Shown here: one piece after another, positions 2,700-40,419 of the stretch | Layout: each line of letters opens with the position of its first letter | Position numbering within the stretch: position 1 is the first letter of the stretch | Virus record (IMG/VR): IMGVR_UViG_3300038420_000034 | Strand: one strand, 5' to 3' | DNA: 51,875 bases | Origin: a virus | Position numbers and translations under genes: made by a program | The notes under the pieces: generated by a model | Told to the model about the DNA's origin: nothing | Databases searched by the model: none | What the model saw: the letters and a program-made list of their open reading frames with translations, nothing else

Positions 2700-3713
2700 T
2701 TAGTTTATCTCAACTGTGTTGGTTATCTCCATCAGAAAGACACCGCCGCCCCACCCAGGCTTGATGACGTTGAACTGCCGAGACGAGTAGTCCCCGGAGC
2801 CGGAGATGACCATGCCATCTGAGAAGCTAGCCATTGGGTGACAGGGATACCAAAGCCCACGGAGCCGGCCTCTGACATTCCAGTTGGCATCCAAGATCCA
2901 AACTGGGCTTATGTAGAGTGACGAGTCCATCGGGTTAGGAAGTGGGATTGACCCAACCAACGGGATGCCAGTTGTCGTTGACATCAGGCCACTGTATCTC
3001 CCTGGGTCACCAACTGGATACCCGATCATGCTCCAACTAGTTCCAGCATAGTTGTCGGCCAGGTAAAGGCCGTAGGCATCGGCCACCGTTGTCACAACTG
3101 GGGTAACCTGCCGGTCAAGGCACCCATTAAGCAGGCCTGTGACCCCGCGGTCTGAGTTGGCCAGGCAGATGGCGCACCGGTTCAGGTCAGAGCTGCCCCA
3201 CAGTGAGTAGATGTCACCAAATAGGTATGCCCCATAGTAACCAGAGCCATCGTTGATGAACAGATAACTTGTGCTGGCGTCGGCATAGAGCTGCCATGAC
3301 CGTGGACTAGTCCCGTCATTACTCTTTTGATAGCCATAGCCTCCGGTGCCCCCTTGAGCAGCTGTCTGAGCCGCGGTTGGAAACGGGCCCGTGCCAGCTA
3401 CGAGTGACGTCATGGTCTTGTAACCAGCGCCCCAGGCCGCCCTAAAACCCATGGACACGGTATCTGGCTGGTTGTCGTTAAGGTAGAGGTAATAGCCACA
3501 CCCAGCGCCTTGCTTGAAGATCCCTATGTTGCCACTGTCGTTGATGACACTGCCGGCTGAACCCATCTTAGTCCAGCCAGCCGCTGCCTTACCAGAGTAG
3601 CCACTGACAAGACACTGGTTATAGAGGCTAAGGAGGGTGGCGCCATTGCCGTAAAGTGGCCCAGGCCCACCATAGTCAGCCGAGGTGTAGACTGTAAATT
3701 GGCTTACGGCCAT
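2700..3713 (-). CDS. tandem paralog A1 (337 aa), putative virion host-recognition protein
   Basis: N-terminus MAVSQFTVYTSADYGGPGPL...NQCLVSGYSGKAAAGWTK...GIFKQGAGCGYYLYLNDN. C-terminus IRGRLRGLWYPCHP...GVFLMEITNTVEIN. Both are shared with four neighbours. 48-nt stretches are identical to A2. Confidence 0.6.
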   Translation of the reverse strand: MAVSQFTVYTSADYGGPGPLYGNGATLLSLYNQCLVSGYSGKAAAGWTKMGSAGSVINDSGNIGIFKQGAGCGYYLYLNDNQPDTVSMGFRAAWGAGYKTMTSLVAGTGPFPTAAQTAAQGGTGGYGYQKSNDGTSPRSWQLYADASTSYLFINDGSGYYGAYLFGDIYSLWGSSDLNRCAICLANSDRGVTGLLNGCLDRQVTPVVTTVADAYGLYLADNYAGTSWSMIGYPVGDPGRYSGLMSTTTGIPLVGSIPLPNPMDSSLYISPVWILDANWNVRGRLRGLWYPCHPMASFSDGMVISGSGDYSSRQFNVIKPGWGGGVFLMEITNTVEIN

Positions 3714-3716
3714 AGG

Positions 3717-4748
3717 CTAGTTGGTCTCGACGGTGTTGCTTGTCTCCATCAAAAAGACACCGTTGCCCCACCCAGGACAGATGACGTTAAACGTCTTGGG
3801 TGAGAGGTCGTTAGTTCCGGAAATGGATGCACCATCTGAAAAGTTTACCAACGGATGGCAAGGATACCAGAGCCCCCTCAGCCTGCCCCTGATGTTCCAG
3901 TTGTAGTCCAACACCCAGATCGGACTTATGTGATATGAGGAGTCTGCTGGATTTGGAAATGGGATAGAGCCAATCAGTGGCAATGGTGTCCCTGCCGCCA
4001 TGACACCGTTATATTTTGACGGGTCTCCGACTGGGTAGCCGACCGTGCTTCCAACGGTCCCGGCATAGCTGTCAGACATGTAGAAGCCATACATGTCTGC
4101 CGCCGTCGTCACCAGTGGGGTAAGCTGCCGGTCAAGGCACCCATACGCAAGGTTCGGAAGCGCGCCTGCTCCACGATCTCCACCAGCCAGGCAGATGGCA
4201 CACCGGTTCAGGTCAGAGCTGCCCCACAAGGAGTAGATGTCACCGAACATGTAGGACCCATAGCCACCATTGCCATCAAACATGAAGAAGTAAAACGTGC
4301 TAGAGTCAGCATAGAGCTGCCATGGCCTGGCCGTGTTTGTGTCTATGCCCTTGACGATGCCGTAGTTAGCCGTCCCACCAATCTCAGTTGCAACTTGCAG
4401 GTCTGTTGGAAACGTGCCCCACCCAGTCGGTGTAAGTGCCGTCATGGTCTTATAGCCACGGGCATACGCACCTTTGTTAACTGCGCCACCGCCACCATCT
4501 GGGGCGTTGTCGTTAAGGTAGAGGTAATAGCCACACCCAGCGCCTTGCTTGAAGATCCCCACGTTAGAGCTATCGTTGATCACGCTGCCAACCGAACCTA
4601 ACTTAGTCCAGCCCGCAGCAGCATGGCCAGAGTAGCCACTGACAAGGCACTGGTTGAAGATATTGAGAAGCCCACCAGCCCCAGTGCACAGAAGAGGCCC
4701 CGGGCTTCCATAGTCACTCGAGGTGTAAAGTGTGAATTGACTAGCCAT
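3717..4748 (-). CDS. tandem paralog A2 (343 aa)
   Basis: Same conserved termini (MASQFTLYTSSDYGSPGPL... / ...GVFLMETSNTVETN). Variable core. Confidence 0.6.
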   Translation of the reverse strand: MASQFTLYTSSDYGSPGPLLCTGAGGLLNIFNQCLVSGYSGHAAAGWTKLGSVGSVINDSSNVGIFKQGAGCGYYLYLNDNAPDGGGGAVNKGAYARGYKTMTALTPTGWGTFPTDLQVATEIGGTANYGIVKGIDTNTARPWQLYADSSTFYFFMFDGNGGYGSYMFGDIYSLWGSSDLNRCAICLAGGDRGAGALPNLAYGCLDRQLTPLVTTAADMYGFYMSDSYAGTVGSTVGYPVGDPSKYNGVMAAGTPLPLIGSIPFPNPADSSYHISPIWVLDYNWNIRGRLRGLWYPCHPLVNFSDGASISGTNDLSPKTFNVICPGWGNGVFLMETSNTVETN

Positions 4749-4753
4749 GGGTC

Positions 4754-5770
4754 CTAGTTCGTCTCAACAGTGTTGCTTGTCTCTACGCAGAAAAGCCCAT
4801 TGCCCCACCCGGGCTTAACCACGGTAAAGGTCTTAGGCGAAAGGTCGCCAGAGCCAGAAAAGGTCGCGGCATCCGAAAAATTTGCCAGTGCATGACAAGG
4901 ATACCAGAGCCCACGCAGCCTGCCCCTGATGTTCCAGCTGGCATCCATCACCCAGATTGGGCTCAGGTAGTATGAGGAGTCCGGCACGTTTGGAAATGGG
5001 ACCGAGCCCACAAACGCAATCGGGAGCGTGGCCGACATGACACCATTGAACTTTGCTGGGTCCCCGACCGTGTAGCCGAGTGTGCTTCCAAAGGTCCCCT
5101 TGTAGTTGTCGGACATGTAGAAGCCATATTTGTTCACGCCTGTCACCAGTGGGGTAAACTGCCGGTCAAGGCACCCCATCGTAAAGACCGGAATTGAACC
5201 TGTGCCACGGTCTGTGTTAGACCCACAGAAGGCACACCGGTTCAGGTCAGAGCTGCCCCACAGGGAGTAGATGTCACCGAACATGTAGGACCCATAGCCT
5301 CCAGAGCCATCAAGGATAAACAGGTAAAACGTGCTAGAGTCAGCCCAAAGCTTCCAGGCACGGCCAGTCGATGCATCTTGGCTCTTGCAAAACCCAAACC
5401 CACCAGAAGAACCTTGGGCAGTCACCTGATACTGCATTGGAAACACACCCCACGCGGTTGTAAGCGACGTCATGGCCTTGTAACCAAGGGCATTCGCACC
5501 CTTGTCACCCATGCCACCGTCTGGGGCATTGTCGTTGACGTAAAGGTAGTAACCACACCCTGCACCCTGCTTGAAGATCCCAATGTTTCCAGAGTCATTG
5601 ATGACACTGCCAGCCGAGCCCATCTTGGTCCAGCCTGCAGCGGCATGACCAGAGTAGCCACTGACAAGACACTGGTTGAGGAGGCCAAGGAAGTTTCCAA
5701 CCGCATTACCATAGAGAAGCCCAGGGCCGCCACTGTCACTCGACGTGTAAAGTGTGAATAGGCTAGCCAT
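4754..5770 (-). CDS. tandem paralog A3 (338 aa)
   Basis: Same family (MASLFTLYTSSDSGGPGLL... / ...GLFCVETSNTVETN). Confidence 0.6.
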   Translation of the reverse strand: MASLFTLYTSSDSGGPGLLYGNAVGNFLGLLNQCLVSGYSGHAAAGWTKMGSAGSVINDSGNIGIFKQGAGCGYYLYVNDNAPDGGMGDKGANALGYKAMTSLTTAWGVFPMQYQVTAQGSSGGFGFCKSQDASTGRAWKLWADSSTFYLFILDGSGGYGSYMFGDIYSLWGSSDLNRCAFCGSNTDRGTGSIPVFTMGCLDRQFTPLVTGVNKYGFYMSDNYKGTFGSTLGYTVGDPAKFNGVMSATLPIAFVGSVPFPNVPDSSYYLSPIWVMDASWNIRGRLRGLWYPCHALANFSDAATFSGSGDLSPKTFTVVKPGWGNGLFCVETSNTVETN

Positions 5771-5775
5771 GGCCT

Positions 5776-6810
5776 CTAGTTCGTCTCGACGGTGTTGCTT
5801 GTCTCAATGCAGTAGATGCCACCATTGGCGCCAGGGCACAAGACCATGAAGGTCTTGCCTGCATAGTCACCAGAGCCAGAAAAGGTCACCCCACTCTGAA
5901 AGCTAGAGGCAGGGTGGCAGATGTGATAGAGCCCTCGCATCCTGCCTCGGATCTCAAAGCCAGTGCTGTCGTAGACATAGATCGGTGACATGTGGATCTG
6001 ACCATCGGCCAAGCTTGGCCTTGGCACGTTGCCAGAGATCGGAACCCCAAGTGTGGTCGTGATCTGCGTGCTGACCTTGCCCAGGTCACCACAGAGCCAG
6101 ACTGGGATGCTGATAGGCGTCCCAGCATAGGTGGAATACATGTAGCGCCCGGAGTAGCCCACCACAGCGTTGTTGCCACCTGCTGTTGAAGTGTAAGGGG
6201 TGTTTAGCTCATCCAGGCCACCATAGCCACACCCAACCGTGGCCTGGTTGATCGCATTTCTCCCTGTGATGATGACACGATTGGCATCCGCACTGCCGTA
6301 GTAGGAGTAGATGTCACCAAAGCAAAAGTCGAAAAACCCGCCAGCCCCAAGGGTAGTATCACCTGTGGCGATGAAGAAGTAGAACGTGCTTGCGTCAGCA
6401 AAGAGCCACCAAGGCCACTGGGTAGTCCCATCAGCCGTAGAGCTCTTGCGCTCTACCAAGACACTCCACGTGGTAAGCTGGGTGATGGTGGGAAAGATGT
6501 TATAGTTTTGTGCCTGGGCAAAGCTGGTGCCAGGGTTGTTAGTCCCCTGCGCCCAATATTCCTTAGCAGAGTAGTCCGAGGCCGCGTTGTCCCAGATGAT
6601 GCAGTAAAGCTGAGCACCGGCACCTTGCTTGAGGACACCATGGTTTGAAGAGTCGGCATAGGGCTTCACCCAGCCAGCTGCTGCCTTGCCAGTATAACCA
6701 CTGCAGAGGCACTGGTTCAGGACGTTGAGCACCGTGCCCGCCGAGCCTGTGATTGGCCCTGGGCCGGCCACGTCACGTGATGAGTAGATGGTGAACTGAC
6801 TGACGGCCAT
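5776..6810 (-). CDS. tandem paralog B1 (344 aa)
   Basis: Diverged subtype (MAVSQFTIYSSRDVAGPGPI...NQCLCSGYTGKAAAGW / EIRGRMRGLYHICHP...GGIYCIETSNTVETN). Confidence 0.6.
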   Translation of the reverse strand: MAVSQFTIYSSRDVAGPGPITGSAGTVLNVLNQCLCSGYTGKAAAGWVKPYADSSNHGVLKQGAGAQLYCIIWDNAASDYSAKEYWAQGTNNPGTSFAQAQNYNIFPTITQLTTWSVLVERKSSTADGTTQWPWWLFADASTFYFFIATGDTTLGAGGFFDFCFGDIYSYYGSADANRVIITGRNAINQATVGCGYGGLDELNTPYTSTAGGNNAVVGYSGRYMYSTYAGTPISIPVWLCGDLGKVSTQITTTLGVPISGNVPRPSLADGQIHMSPIYVYDSTGFEIRGRMRGLYHICHPASSFQSGVTFSGSGDYAGKTFMVLCPGANGGIYCIETSNTVETN

Positions 6811-6815
6811 AGCCT

Positions 6816-7874
6816 CTAGTTCGTCTCAACGGTGTTGCTTGTCTCAATGCAGTAGGCACCGCCATTCTGCCCTGGTGACAGGATCATGAAGGTCTTGCCC
6901 GCATAGTCACCAGCACCTGAGAAGGTCATCCTGCCACCCTGAAAACTTGACGCTGAGTGGCAGACATGGTAAAACCCACGCATCCGCCCACGGATGGCCC
7001 AAGTTGTAGGGTTGTCGTAGATGAAAACTGGCGCCACATAGACACTGTTATCGGCCATGTTCGACCGTGGGATGTTGCCTGCCAGTGGAACTCCCACCGA
7101 AGTTGTGAGCTGCGTGCTGACCTTGCCCAGGTCACCACAGATCCAGATAGGGATGCTAGCATTGGAGACGCCACCACCGTGGCCATACCAGTCGGCCATG
7201 TAACGGCCTGAATAGCCAGCTGCGCCGGGTGCGCCACTGTTGCCTCCTACAGTTGAGACATAAGGTGTGTTCAACTCATCCAAGCCACCCAGGCCACACC
7301 CAACAGACGCGTTGTTGATGGAGACCCTGCCAGCGATAAAGACACGCTCAGTATCACTGCTGCCATACAGAGAGTAGATGTCCCCAAACCCAAAGTCCAT
7401 GTATCCACCCAGGCCAAGGGTCGTGTCGCCTGTCGCGATGAACATGTAGATCGTGCGCGCGTCGGCAAAGAGATACCATGGCCTTAAGGTTGTTGAGTCA
7501 GCCGTGGCACTCTTGCGGACGATCAGTTGGCCCCATATGGTAAGTTGTATAGCATTTGGAAACTGCCCGCCTCCAGAAGACGTGTGAGCTCCATAAAACG
7601 CCGCCTCAGCAGCTGTGGTAGGAAAGGTAGCGCCATTGTCAGTCACCCCAAGGTAAAGCCCAAACGGGGCCGAGTTGACGCCAGCACCCTGCTGAAACAA
7701 TGCAAAATTTGAGGCAATTGGGGCAACCTTAGACCAGCCTGCAGCGGCATGGCCAGAGTAGCCAGAACACAGGCACTGGTCAAGGACGTTGATAAACGAC
7801 CCAGCAGACCCGGTGATGAAACCAGGCCCGCCAGCATCGTATGACGAGTAGACGGTAAACTGGCTGAAGGCCAT
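6816..7874 (-). CDS. tandem paralog B2 (352 aa)
   Basis: Subtype B (MAFSQFTVYSSYDAGGPGFI... / ...GGAYCIETSNTVETN). Confidence 0.6.
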   Translation of the reverse strand: MAFSQFTVYSSYDAGGPGFITGSAGSFINVLDQCLCSGYSGHAAAGWSKVAPIASNFALFQQGAGVNSAPFGLYLGVTDNGATFPTTAAEAAFYGAHTSSGGGQFPNAIQLTIWGQLIVRKSATADSTTLRPWYLFADARTIYMFIATGDTTLGLGGYMDFGFGDIYSLYGSSDTERVFIAGRVSINNASVGCGLGGLDELNTPYVSTVGGNSGAPGAAGYSGRYMADWYGHGGGVSNASIPIWICGDLGKVSTQLTTSVGVPLAGNIPRSNMADNSVYVAPVFIYDNPTTWAIRGRMRGFYHVCHSASSFQGGRMTFSGAGDYAGKTFMILSPGQNGGAYCIETSNTVETN

Positions 7875-36019: not shown

Positions 36020-37056
36020 GCCACATCATCTCCGAGCATTGGGACCGTGAACTTGCCAGCCATGCTAAGTGGCCCCACGGTGACCATCGCATGAACCACA
36101 TCGTGGTCTATGGTGGGCAGTATGGAAGTGAAGGCAAGGCCTCAGCCGCCGAGTATTGGGCCAAGCGGCTGAAGGCTGAAAACCCACGCAAGGTGCTCTT
36201 TGTCATGGGTGAGAATGGGCCAAACTCCGGACACACCAGCTCTAAGGGGGTCACCAAGAACATCCCAGCCTCCAGCTTCTGGGCCGACTACGTCCTCATG
36301 GGCCCAGACACGGTCGTCGACCCAGAGGCCCTGAACAAGGACTGGAAGGCCGTCAACCGGCCCATCTTCATCCACGAGCACGCGGCCCTGCTCAGCCTGG
36401 CCATGAAGGCAGAGGAGGCCGACCTCGTCAAGCGCATCTCCTCCACCGGGTCAGGGACCGGCGCCGCCCGCGCGTGGAAGTTCTTCCAGCGCCAGCGAAG
36501 CGCCGTCGTGCAGGACGGGCACCTCTACACCCTCAATGACATCAGCGTCGTTGACGACAAGGAATACTTTGACATCGTTCGCCTGGCCGCCTCTGAGATG
36601 GCCATCTTCGAGTGCTCACAGGGGCTGTTGCTTGACACAAACTTTGGGCTGTTCCCATTCGTCACGTCACGCTCCACGCTGCCAAGGGTGGCGGTTGAGC
36701 GCAACGGCCTTGGTGGGCTTCCCTGGAGCTACGTAGGCGTCTACCGCACGTATCCCATAAGGACGGGCGGCCCATCTGGCCCGACCGCCGGTGGCGAGGT
36801 GACCTGGCAAAGCCTTGGGCAGCCCCCGGAGATCACCACGGTCACCAAGCGAGTCAGGCGGGTCTTCAACTTCTCAACGGCCGAGTTTGCAAAAAGCATG
36901 ACGCTGGCCAGGCCTGACGGGCTCATGTTCACCTTCCTCGACTACATCGGCCTGGACCCGAACAACGTGCGGGATCTCTACGAGTTCATCGAGTGGACCA
37001 GGTATCAAAACATCGCCATCTTGGTCTTGTCCGCGTTGTTGGTGACCTCAACATAG
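36016..37056 (+). CDS. adenylosuccinate synthetase family enzyme, short form (346 aa); PurZ candidate
   Basis: Collinear PurA motifs: P-loop GGQYGSEGKAS (PurA GTQWGDEGKGK). GPNSGHT (GHNAGHT). STGSGTGAA (TTGRGIGPA). FECSQGLLLDTNFGLFPFVTSRST ([24 protein letters not shown]). TTVTKRVRR (GATTGRRRR). Lacks the bacterial C-terminal extension. Confidence 0.75.
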   Translation: MSHIISEHWDRELASHAKWPHGDHRMNHIVVYGGQYGSEGKASAAEYWAKRLKAENPRKVLFVMGENGPNSGHTSSKGVTKNIPASSFWADYVLMGPDTVVDPEALNKDWKAVNRPIFIHEHAALLSLAMKAEEADLVKRISSTGSGTGAARAWKFFQRQRSAVVQDGHLYTLNDISVVDDKEYFDIVRLAASEMAIFECSQGLLLDTNFGLFPFVTSRSTLPRVAVERNGLGGLPWSYVGVYRTYPIRTGGPSGPTAGGEVTWQSLGQPPEITTVTKRVRRVFNFSTAEFAKSMTLARPDGLMFTFLDYIGLDPNNVRDLYEFIEWTRYQNIAILVLSALLVTST

Positions 37057-37151
37057 CACGCGACAATGCTGTCCTCCTTGTGGTCTGTCAGATATTCCCA
37101 GATGCAGAAGGTCGAGTCAAGCCCACCGGACCATAGGACCCCGACCTTCAT
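37002..37151 (-). pseudogene. N-terminal remnant of a PP-loop ATPase (QueC/ExsB-like), 49 codons
   Basis: MKVGVLWSGGLDSTFCIWEYLTDHKEDSIVACYVEV... = SGGxDS PP-loop at the position seen in QueC. Frame terminates after 49 codons inside the antisense of the PurA-like gene. Confidence 0.35.
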
Positions 37152-37300
37152 ACCTTTCGCTGGTCGTAGGCGACGATCTCATCAAAAGGAAACGGAGCCT
37201 CGATAAGATGCTTGGTGCCATACCGTCTAACCCACGCCTCAAGCGTCATGGGCTTCTGGTTACTTCGCCTTATCTTCTTCCGTGTGACACTGGCTTTCAT
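37148..37300 (-). CDS. possible small basic protein (50 aa), not in ORF track
   Basis: MKASVTRKKIRRSNQKPMTLEAWVRRYGTKHLIEAPFPFDEIVAYDQRKV. ATGA junctions on both sides. Confidence 0.3.
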   Translation of the reverse strand: MKASVTRKKIRRSNQKPMTLEAWVRRYGTKHLIEAPFPFDEIVAYDQRKV

Positions 37301-37566
37301 AGGCCAAGGAAAAAACCATCTGGGTGAAGAACCTCCAACGACTCCTGGCTGGTGTTGTGGATCATCTGGATCTCAGCCCAAGCTGAGTCGCCGGCTACCT
37401 CAAACTTGGTCACCACCCCAATGACATTCAACAACGTCACCGGGCTCTGAGACCCTACCAGCAGTGTTCGATTAACAACTCTAGGCTGGGCCCTGTCCAC
37501 CATGCCTTGGATCGCCGAAAGTGGCATCCGGTCAGATGCCTTAAAAAGTCTTGCTCGGATAGTCAC
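37297..37566 (-). CDS. hypothetical protein (89 aa)
   Basis: ORF in coupled chain. Confidence 0.45.
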   Translation of the reverse strand: MTIRARLFKASDRMPLSAIQGMVDRAQPRVVNRTLLVGSQSPVTLLNVIGVVTKFEVAGDSAWAEIQMIHNTSQESLEVLHPDGFFLGL

Positions 37567-37569
37567 AGG

Positions 37570-37821
37570 TCACATCCTTAACTCATCTGGAAATGACCTC
37601 TTGCGCACCACCTCCACCAGGTGCCAACACATCATCACCTGGTCAACACTAAGCGAGTCCACTGAGTCAGGCCAAAGGTGAAGCTCACTCATCGTGTAGA
37701 CAGCATCACGCAAGCTATGCCGAACCGACACTGGTTCGGCAGACGGCCTGCCAAGCCACCTCTCTACCTCGGCCCGGTGCTCATCCCGACTCATCTCTTG
37801 CTTTTTGCCGTTGTTGCTCAT
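37570..37821 (-). CDS. hypothetical protein (83 aa)
   Basis: ORF in coupled chain. Confidence 0.45.
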   Translation of the reverse strand: MSNNGKKQEMSRDEHRAEVERWLGRPSAEPVSVRHSLRDAVYTMSELHLWPDSVDSLSVDQVMMCWHLVEVVRKRSFPDELRM

Positions 37822-38119
37822 TAAGCTTATCTGCCATCGCTGGGTCGCAGCCTTCGCTCAGATACACAAACGGTGGGACCCTGACATTGCGGTCTGGCAA
37901 CAGGCTCTTCACCGTGCCCATGACAGCCTCTGGAGGCTCGCGGCGCCGCTCTAGCTCAAGGTCCACGATACAGTTTCTGAGTTGACTCAAGCAGCCTACC
38001 ATCTGCTGGTAGGGTGTGCCCACACGCTTGGCCTCTGCAATCTGCTGCTCATACTGGACAACCTGGGCCTTCCACGACCTGATCAGCTGCCCTGGTCTTG
38101 GTCTGGTCCACTCTGGCAT
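37781..38119 (-). CDS. hypothetical protein (112 aa)
   Basis: ORF. Helical basic protein. Confidence 0.45.
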   Translation of the reverse strand: MPEWTRPRPGQLIRSWKAQVVQYEQQIAEAKRVGTPYQQMVGCLSQLRNCIVDLELERRREPPEAVMGTVKSLLPDRNVRVPPFVYLSEGCDPAMADKLNEQQRQKARDESG

Positions 38120-38514
38120 AGTATCTCTTTGATGGCGTCTGAAAGCAACATCCCAGTGTCAAAAGACTGACTGCCACGGTGCCCAACCAAGGCAACCCGC
38201 GCATAGTGTGGGTCGCCCGCAAATCCCTGTCGGTCCCATGGCATCCCAGCAAAGAACGTAACCCGCCCTTGGGTGCATGGGCAGACAGAGACACTCGGGC
38301 TTACCCCTGCGCCACAGACTGGGCAGACCCAGCCACTAGGTCGTGTCCGACACTCAAGTGCAAAGCAGGCCTGACATAGCCACGGCCCACCATTGACCTG
38401 ATATGAAAGCCCTTTGGTTGGGCCGCCACATCGTTCACAGTGGCGCTCAGCTGCCGTGCCTATAGGTTGACTCATACCTGCTCCATCGCATATCGCTTCA
38501 TCTCTTCCTTCCAC
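38083..38514 (-). CDS. hypothetical Cys-rich protein (143 aa)
   Basis: CERCGG...CQAC...CPVCG...C.C zinc-ribbon pairs. Confidence 0.45.
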   Translation of the reverse strand: MEGRDEAICDGAGMSQPIGTAAERHCERCGGPTKGLSYQVNGGPWLCQACFALECRTRPSGWVCPVCGAGVSPSVSVCPCTQGRVTFFAGMPWDRQGFAGDPHYARVALVGHRGSQSFDTGMLLSDAIKEILCQSGPDQDQGS

Positions 38515-39144: not shown

Positions 39145-40419
39145 TCACCTGATATGGGGCATAGACAAAACCCACCTCATTGCAGACGACTGGTCATCTT
39201 CAGCAGTCCACGTGGCCTTTAGCTTCTTGGTCTTGGCCACCAACGGGGCCGACACCAGGATCAGCCCGGTCGGCCGCTTCGACTCGCCTATGCATTCCCA
39301 CTCCTTCTCACCCTCGGACGTCCACGGCTCAGTCTTGGCGTCAACCAGCGCCTTGTAGACGCGATTGCCCTTGGTCACCGTCGAGCCTGCCTTGTAAAAC
39401 CCAGGCTCCCACTCCTCATGGTCTGTCTGGCGATACTTGTGCTCAACCGTGCAGCGGCCATACTCCGGGGTCAGCCAGATGGCGTCCCCAACCATGGGTG
39501 AGATCTGGCTGTAGAAACAGCCTGTGAACAGGGTGAACATCCGGCCAGTGTCGTGGTTCTTGTAGTCGAGCCGGCTGATGTGGGATGGCAGGCCTTCAAG
39601 CTGGATCTTCTGCTTGGAGTTGTAGAGAAACTCCAGGACCCACCCCGTCATCTCGAACTGGTGCCCACTGCCACAGTGGTGGAGCCTCACCATCTGGCTG
39701 AACAGCTCCTTCGCGTCGGCCTTCCCATCAAATGCCGCGTCAATGATCTTGTCCACGCGAGCCCTGCATTTTGTCAGCCAGGCAACTATCCTCGGGTTGA
39801 GCTTCTCAAACACGCCGGCGACGTCCTTGATGCTCTGCCTGAGCAAGACCCAGTCCTCGTAGATCCCGTCGACCCGGATGTTTGGGATGCCACAGAGGAG
39901 CGTGCCATAGCGATAGTATGGCGAGACCACGTCACAGAAGGCGATGTTCAGGGCCAGCTGTGAGTCGTGGGTCGCCGTCGTGAAGTCAGGCAGGAACATC
40001 TCCACGACCAGTGGGTTGGGCACGGCCTTCCGCAAGGCCGAGATGAGCTTGTAGGGGTCGATGGCCTCAACATCAGCCGTGCCCACGATGATCTCAGCCT
40101 GAGCATCTGGAGTCTTGGTGAACAGGCCAGCATAGCACTTTGGGTCACCACGGACCACCCTGGCAATCTCGCAGACGATGACATACCACAGGTCGTCTGG
40201 CCGCAGCACGGCCGAGTAGTGGTTCTCCCACGCCATGGCCAGGTAGCTCAAGAAGCCCTCATGGCAGATGGTGGTGTCCATCGGTGGCTTCCTGAAGACG
40301 ACGGCGTCAGTGCTGCCAAACAGCCTCTTCAGGGCCCTCCACCGGGCGCTGATCTCCGTTGTCTCCAGCGGCCTTACCTCCCTCTCACACAGTTGGATTG
40401 TCTTCATGTTATGCGTCAA
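39145..40419 (-). CDS. hypothetical protein (424 aa)
   Basis: Long clean ORF in the GT/kinase-like neighbourhood. No motif assigned. Confidence 0.6.
   Translation of the reverse strand: MTHNMKTIQLCEREVRPLETTEISARWRALKRLFGSTDAVVFRKPPMDTTICHEGFLSYLAMAWENHYSAVLRPDDLWYVIVCEIARVVRGDPKCYAGLFTKTPDAQAEIIVGTADVEAIDPYKLISALRKAVPNPLVVEMFLPDFTTATHDSQLALNIAFCDVVSPYYRYGTLLCGIPNIRVDGIYEDWVLLRQSIKDVAGVFEKLNPRIVAWLTKCRARVDKIIDAAFDGKADAKELFSQMVRLHHCGSGHQFEMTGWVLEFLYNSKQKIQLEGLPSHISRLDYKNHDTGRMFTLFTGCFYSQISPMVGDAIWLTPEYGRCTVEHKYRQTDHEEWEPGFYKAGSTVTKGNRVYKALVDAKTEPWTSEGEKEWECIGESKRPTGLILVSAPLVAKTKKLKATWTAEDDQSSAMRWVLSMPHIR

Follow-up and report, generated by a model that had tools for sequence, protein, structure and literature searches.

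A probable pseudogene stub of a QueC-like PP-loop ATPase gene, fused tail-to-tail to a truncated purZ in an uncultivated phage

The described systems closest to the locus reported here are PurZ, the N6-succino-2-amino-2′-deoxyadenylate synthase of the phages phiVC8 and S-2L, QueC, the 7-cyano-7-deazaguanine synthase (PF06508/TIGR00364; B. subtilis structure 3bl5), and the proteins of PHROG 1550 ('QueC-like queuosine biosynthesis'), for which we know of no experimental determination of function. Full-length PHROG 1550 proteins are 210-290 aa long and combine an N-terminal signature, (V)LWSGGLDSTY...Y.E..NN..K, with a central GYVMNDDAISY block and a C-terminal WCE...CGxCxxC cluster. A SGGxDS PP-loop near the N-terminus is also a motif of QueC (PMC13329287).

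We analysed a 51.9-kb contig (51,875 nucleotides, IMG/VR record IMGVR_UViG_3300038420_000034; hereafter the window), in which a short minus-strand open reading frame overlaps the 3′ end of a PurA-like (purZ) gene on the plus strand by 52 nt. The initial annotation had placed this frame at 37002-37151 and had it stop after 49 codons. The ORF listing confirmed the right end and the count, which comprises an ATG start, 48 amino acids (MKVGVLWSGGLDSTFCIWEYLTDHKEDSIVACYVEVTNNADKTKMAMF) and the TGA; the left end lay 3 nt beyond the stop, which is at 37005. The peptide, annotated by JGI as 'argininosuccinate synthase', carries a SGGLDS PP-loop at residues 8-13 and the N-terminal signature of PHROG 1550, whereas the remaining architecture of that family is missing, as is the Zn-binding C(x)8CxxCxxC motif of QueC, the ORF stopping at residue 48. 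Its ATG overlaps the stop of the preceding gene (Table 1), and such ATGA overlaps are the usual arrangement within a phage operon. Our analysis makes it very probable that the ORF is a pseudogene stub of a QueC-like gene at a breakpoint shared with a truncated purZ, likely produced by deletion or illegitimate recombination.

Table 1. Positions of the main features of the locus within the window.
Feature	Position	Strand	Remarks
Four-gene island (MVP-like 877 aa, 59 aa, 60 aa, purZ)	33031..37056	+	Surroundings on the - strand; bounded on the right by the junction
PurZ-homologous part of the PurA-like gene	36091..37017	+	Probable start M26 at 36091; longest ORF from 36016
Last three codons (A46, M47, F48) and TGA of the 48-aa ORF	37005..37016	-	Antisense of purZ codons Y-Q-N-I-A; not QueC-like
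QueC-like PP-loop ATPase gene remnant, present reading	37005..37151	-	ATG, 48 codons and TGA; identical 147 nt in 10 fetched contigs
Junction of PurZ (+) and QueC-like (-) homology; rearrangement breakpoint	37014..37019	.	PurZ ends with codon 37015-37017, QueC-like homology with M45 codon 37017-37019
Codons 1-45, of PHROG 1550 QueC-like origin	37017..37151	-	beta1, SGGLDS PP-loop, alpha1, beta2, NNxxKTKM; family HMM positions 4-46 of 234
Non-homologous 12-residue PurZ tail ILVLSALLVTST and TAG	37018..37056	+	Antisense to QueC-like codons 33-44; replaces the conserved C-terminus of about 22 residues
Upstream 50-aa ORF, last intact gene of the - strand operon	37148..37300	-	TGA shares ATGA with the remnant's ATG

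That the peptide is the N-terminus of a PP-loop ATPase, as had been proposed from the letters alone, was borne out by homology searches. A phmmer search against 1.84 billion representatives returned about 25 proteins, 180-294 aa in length, that align with residues 1/2-45/46 at 50-60% identity (whole-library E-values down to 4e-7), and the full-length proteins among them belong to PHROG 1550 with E-values of 1e-23 to 1e-34. The PHROG 1550 profile, an independent one, matched the peptide at E 2.7e-6. In a six-frame search of the window and three loci, a family HMM built without the query matched the stub at E 4e-18, a value that is inflated because the family members were picked through the query's own matches; the phmmer and PHROG 1550 results are free of this effect. 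Alignment with 21 family members showed that all ten invariant columns are kept (S8, G9, G10, D12, S13, T14, Y33, N38, N39 and K42) and that the likeness stops at residue 45: the nearly invariant E46 is A46 in the window, where the stub ends in KTKMAMF and a stop against a family consensus of KTKME. A word-indexed protein search with the peptide returned the peptide itself only, and tblastn against phages gave weak matches (E 0.02-0.8) to QueC-like or 'alpha hydrolase' genes, which we treat as leads.

Profile comparisons indicate that PHROG 1550 is a distant, QueC-like family and not demonstrably QueC. Its profile covers the entire B. subtilis QueC 3bl5, the C-terminal Cys cluster included, and its full-length members reach at most 34 bits with TIGR00364, for which the cut-off is 150.3. 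The peptide itself has no TIGR00364 match and scores 12.8 bits against Pfam QueC (cut-off 22). With the peptide alone, Pfam gave sub-threshold alignments beginning at profile position 1, 2 or 4, to Diphthami_syn_2 (1.9e-4), Arginosuc_synth (1.7e-3) and QueC (0.083).

About 80% of the QueC-like gene has been lost and its first fifth is left. The proposal that the ORF is an N-terminal remnant is supported by the end of the homology and by the fate of the rest: a six-frame search of the window gave no match to HMM positions 47-234 of the family, and neither reading past the TGA nor shifting the frame yielded more PP-loop sequence. The stub holds beta1, the PP-loop, alpha1 and beta2 only, and because the substrate-binding core (the GYVMNDDAISY region) and the WCE...CGxCxxC cluster are missing, we infer that it cannot be an active ATPase. 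The databases searched held no intact close allele: the metagenome scan gave identical truncated alleles and one distant partial, every close copy carried the truncated allele, and the intact queC/PP-loop homologues at the same position in relatives that the initial annotation had suggested looking for were not found. The short database entries of PHROG 1550 look like partial proteins from contig ends. These absences hold for the 51.9-kb contig, which is probably a fragment of a larger phage genome, and the missing parts might thus lie outside it; terminase, portal, capsid and DNA polymerase families were not detected among the 66 ORFs of the window.

The plus-strand gene (36016 or 36091..37056; 321 aa in the JGI gene call) is a PurZ homologue. 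Its protein is related to solved PurZ structures over the catalytic core (phiVC8 PurZ chains 6tnh/6fm1, E 2e-30, query residues 13-326; S-2L PurZ 7odx, 1.6e-16), its nearest metagenomic relatives are 60-67% identical (67% for P0003 and P0004), and alignment with the 17 closest of them showed all invariant positions kept. All 17 homologues end in a conserved C-terminus, ...F.EWLxFYxIxEVRRxPVxVSNKTGxFVxY, whose last approximately 22 residues (EVRRxPVxVSNKTGxF...) are missing from the window protein; the C-terminal profile aligns only up to ...EWTRYQNIA, at profile position 29 of 51. An HMM of the motif found no match in any frame of the window and recovered the controls (L011-L013). We sought the place of the lost motif on solved PurZ or PurA structures through a sequence profile, and the alignment ended short of it. 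The hydrophobic tail of the PurA-like protein, which had been noted as atypical, is indeed without similarity to the conserved C-terminus of its relatives. A MAFFT alignment had suggested that the tail might be a diverged native C-terminus, a candidate that we rejected: its best PSSM score was -10 bits, a value reached by 29% of shuffled sequences and 31% of random 12-mers. The suspicion that this tail was tied to the destroyed locus proved correct, the tail being read from the antisense of the QueC-like codons (Table 1) as a by-product of the same junction.

Because the two homologies abut within 37014-37019, purZ and the QueC-like gene are, on sequence comparison, both cut at a single breakpoint and fused tail-to-tail. 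Terminator, promoter and repeat scans around the junction gave nothing meaningful, and blastn of 35800-38200 against 50,697 phage records found no match. The ten contigs that carry the junction within the identical ORF come from different samples, assembled by JGI, ENA and Logan, and two further JGI metagenome matches have 100% protein identity to the stub. Over all aligned stretches the contigs share about 99.3-100% identity with the window; because such identity marks one near-clonal population, they are uninformative on selection.

The same contigs bear on the idea that the junction is an assembly chimera, or that an ORF arising by chance in GC-rich DNA happens to look like a PP-loop protein. 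The Pfam matches of the peptide alone do stay under the gathering thresholds, and by our estimate a SGGxDS hexapeptide by itself is no rarity when 60% GC DNA is translated in six frames. However, the junction recurs in at least 10 contigs from different pipelines and samples, and the homology is significant in the phmmer, PHROG 1550 and family HMM searches alike, which leaves this explanation scarcely credible.

We propose instead that purZ and the QueC-like gene were once adjacent and convergent, and that one event, most likely a deletion or else an illegitimate recombination, took the 3′ ends of both. The first 45 codons of the PHROG 1550 gene would thereby have been joined to three codons and a stop from foreign DNA, and purZ would have lost its last approximately 22 codons; each gene now continues into the opposite strand of its neighbour as far as a stop that happens to lie there, which gives PurZ its hydrophobic tail and the stub its AMF and stop. 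The stub may still be translated, as it retains the ATG and the overlap with the upstream gene. Deletion or illegitimate recombination is the simplest explanation because the population shows many deletions relative to the window, namely of 37314-38292, of 50 bp within purZ (36463-36512) and of 2301 bp in the MVP-like gene. An inversion within the contig was excluded, since neither the QueC-like nor the purZ 3′ piece is present in the window. Counting against this account, none of the relatives recovered preserves the ancestral arrangement, which limits both the preference for deletion over an insertion with loss and the proposed adjacency of the two genes. Counting against a remnant, the reading frame of the stub is free of internal stops and frameshifts and all its invariant residues are retained, which fits a recent event and would also fit continued use.

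The population deletions have features of their own. The 2301-bp deletion (33231-35531), found in two assemblies (L002 and L003), is in-frame and flanked by a 9-nt direct repeat, CGGGGCCAT. The 979-bp segment 37314-38292, which holds ORFs of 89, 83 and 112 aa and part of a 143-aa ORF, is missing from most population variants, and its loss yields a 115-aa ORF immediately upstream of the remnant. Because the same two assemblies, which are independent, also carry the 50-bp deletion, which is frameshifting, purZ appears to be dispensable or decaying in part of the population.

The initial annotation had read the locus as the scar of an insertion that destroyed a resident 7-deazaguanine gene, with one DNA-modification pathway replacing another. 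In this reading, the plus-strand purZ island entered a functional QueC gene and the 2-aminoadenine pathway took the place of the deazaguanine pathway. An insertion draws on several observations: the island is the sole plus-strand block in a minus-strand region and has its own divergent promoter-like region, its GC content is 0.615-0.622 compared with 0.54-0.58 in flanking 1-kb bins, purZ occurs in unrelated contexts across phages and is hence mobile, and the QueC-like gene is indeed broken at the island's edge with the rest gone. However, purZ too is cut short at the junction, the island lacks flanking repeats, whether direct or inverted, and the QueC-like 3′ part lies neither at the island's other edge nor elsewhere in the window; on the far side (32570-33030) we found a promoter-like region and two small unrelated ORFs. 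Because purZ is also truncated and no QueC-like 3′ part lies across the island, deletion is simpler than a clean insertion; an insertion with simultaneous loss of both 3′ ends is a less probable alternative, with no flanking repeats or remnants in its favour. What stands of the earlier reading is thus the broken gene, not the insertion.

The replacement of pathways is not supported either. PHROG 1550 reaches 34 bits against a QueC equivalog cut-off of 150, and the search of the contig for queD, queE, folE and dpdA, proposed as a check, came back empty: the FolE, QueD, QueE and TGT/DpdA families were not detected among the 66 window ORFs (Pfam E≤1e-3, PHROGs E≤1e-5), and nor, at the same thresholds, were MazG- or HD-type PurZ partners. 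We therefore do not retain the term 7-deazaguanine gene. Both genes are intact, about 46 kb apart, on the 230-kb phage contig Ga0335085_10000140, which carries the best full-length QueC-like relative (P0124) together with one of the 67%-identical PurZ relatives (P0004) and is the closest phage with both genes; some population variants of the window, moreover, have a frameshifted purZ. A QueC-like HMM scan found no QueC-like gene within 5 kb of purZ at any of 80 other IMG/VR PurZ loci. This coexistence speaks against the claim of replacement, and insertion combined with replacement is, taken as a whole, unlikely.

A stand-alone product offers another reading, in which the 48 residues are a genuine micro-protein under selection, for example an ATP/PPi-binding peptide or a regulator. 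The intact ATG, the translational coupling through the ATGA overlap, the lack of internal lesions with every invariant residue kept, and the identical sequence in every contig found would all suit such a product. On the other hand, the last three residues and the stop derive from purZ antisense, the homology to a family of 210-290-aa enzymes stops exactly at the breakpoint, about 80% of the fold is missing with its Zn/Cys cluster, the identity among contigs extends over all flanks and reflects near-clonal DNA and not selection, and the short family members resemble contig-end partials. We consider this reading very unlikely; the 'functional mini-ORF' of the initial annotation is likewise unlikely for a fragment of beta1, PP-loop, alpha1 and beta2. 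The broader notion that the fusion is not inert, either because the coupled PP-loop peptide is functional or because purZ is active with a C-terminus taken from the antisense of a dead gene, seems to us hardly more probable; if true, an active chimeric purZ would be a modest natural example of a truncated enzyme rescued by overprinting.

Gene neighbourhoods in relatives were compared with the window. The contexts of the three closest PurZ homologues showed no synteny, and the window has no homologues of the genes that lie downstream of the QueC-like gene in L014, where it is intact, or of purZ in L012. None of the IMG/VR scans in which PurZ, DUF4419 or the 205-aa neighbour served as the single query returned a relative. 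A DUF4419 gene (39145-40419, minus strand) precedes the QueC-like remnant by about 2 kb, and on the 230-kb contig a 41%-identical DUF4419 gene (L014 5018-6202) precedes the intact QueC-like gene by 1.8 kb; DUF4419 and the QueC-like gene may form a functional pairing. Separately, PHROG 1550 genes adjoin or overlap a dCMP deaminase gene in Serratia phage phiMAM1 (L095 4908-6893) and on the 169-kb contig of P0125. Because they sit beside dCMP deaminase, there are hints of a role for PHROG 1550 in pyrimidine/nucleotide metabolism rather than in queuosine synthesis. The putative link among PHROG 1550 QueC-like genes, dCMP deaminase and DUF4419 may merit separate study.

Recognisable functions elsewhere in the window comprise thymidylate kinase, DHFR, DUF4419, an MVP-like protein, PTPase, a D12 adenine methyltransferase, GGACT, GIY-YIG and HNH nucleases, a phosphoesterase and a glycosyltransferase. 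The methyltransferase, a D12-class N6-adenine DNA enzyme (45026-46099, minus strand; Pfam 1e-17), would be odd beside purZ if the genome had swapped A for 2-aminoadenine. The 877-aa MVP-like protein (33031-35664, plus strand) matches Pfam MVP_shoulder at 9e-19 and Vault_3 at 1.6e-9, placing a major-vault-protein-like gene on a phage contig. Five tandem paralogues of 337-352 aa (2700-7874, minus strand), all beginning MA.SQFT.Y.S.D..GPG, are probably tail-fibre or receptor-binding paralogues. The divergent intergenic region 32905-33030, to the left of the island, contains the motif TGTAAACAAG twice (32933 and 32971) and a promoter-like site, TTTACA-17-TATATT, for the 53-aa ORF on the minus strand.

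We regard the fusion as an ordinary genome-decay event in an uncultivated phage, whose population sheds accessory nucleotide-metabolism genes by small deletions and in which antisense read-through makes odd protein tails. For annotation, the 48-aa ORF is best entered as a pseudogene fragment; it is not an argininosuccinate synthase and is no evidence for a 7-deazaguanine pathway or 7-deazaguanine DNA. The window purZ is C-terminally altered and perhaps non-functional, and its sister variants are frameshifted, which should be flagged before a 2-aminoadenine genome is inferred.

Compared with the known systems, the stub shares with PHROG 1550 proteins (phiMAM1 gp175 and the metagenomic P0124, P0125 and P0131) the first 45 residues, that is, a hydrophobic beta1, the SGGLDST PP-loop, alpha1 and a beta2 with Y..(I/V).NN..K(T/V)K, but differs from them in lacking the GYVMNDDAISY block, the FPL.K motif and the WCE...CGxCxxC cluster. 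With QueC it has in common the N-terminal PP-loop, and its parent family spans the whole of 3bl5, whereas the curated cut-offs of PF06508 and TIGR00364 are not reached and the preQ0-pathway partner genes are missing from the window. The plus-strand gene resembles PurZ of phiVC8 and S-2L as a homologue with a QYGSEGK P-loop but, unlike them, stands in a window in which Pfam and PHROGs detected no MazG- or HD-type partner, and it differs from its own 17 closest homologues in that the 22-residue C-terminal motif has given way to an unrelated hydrophobic tail of 12 residues.
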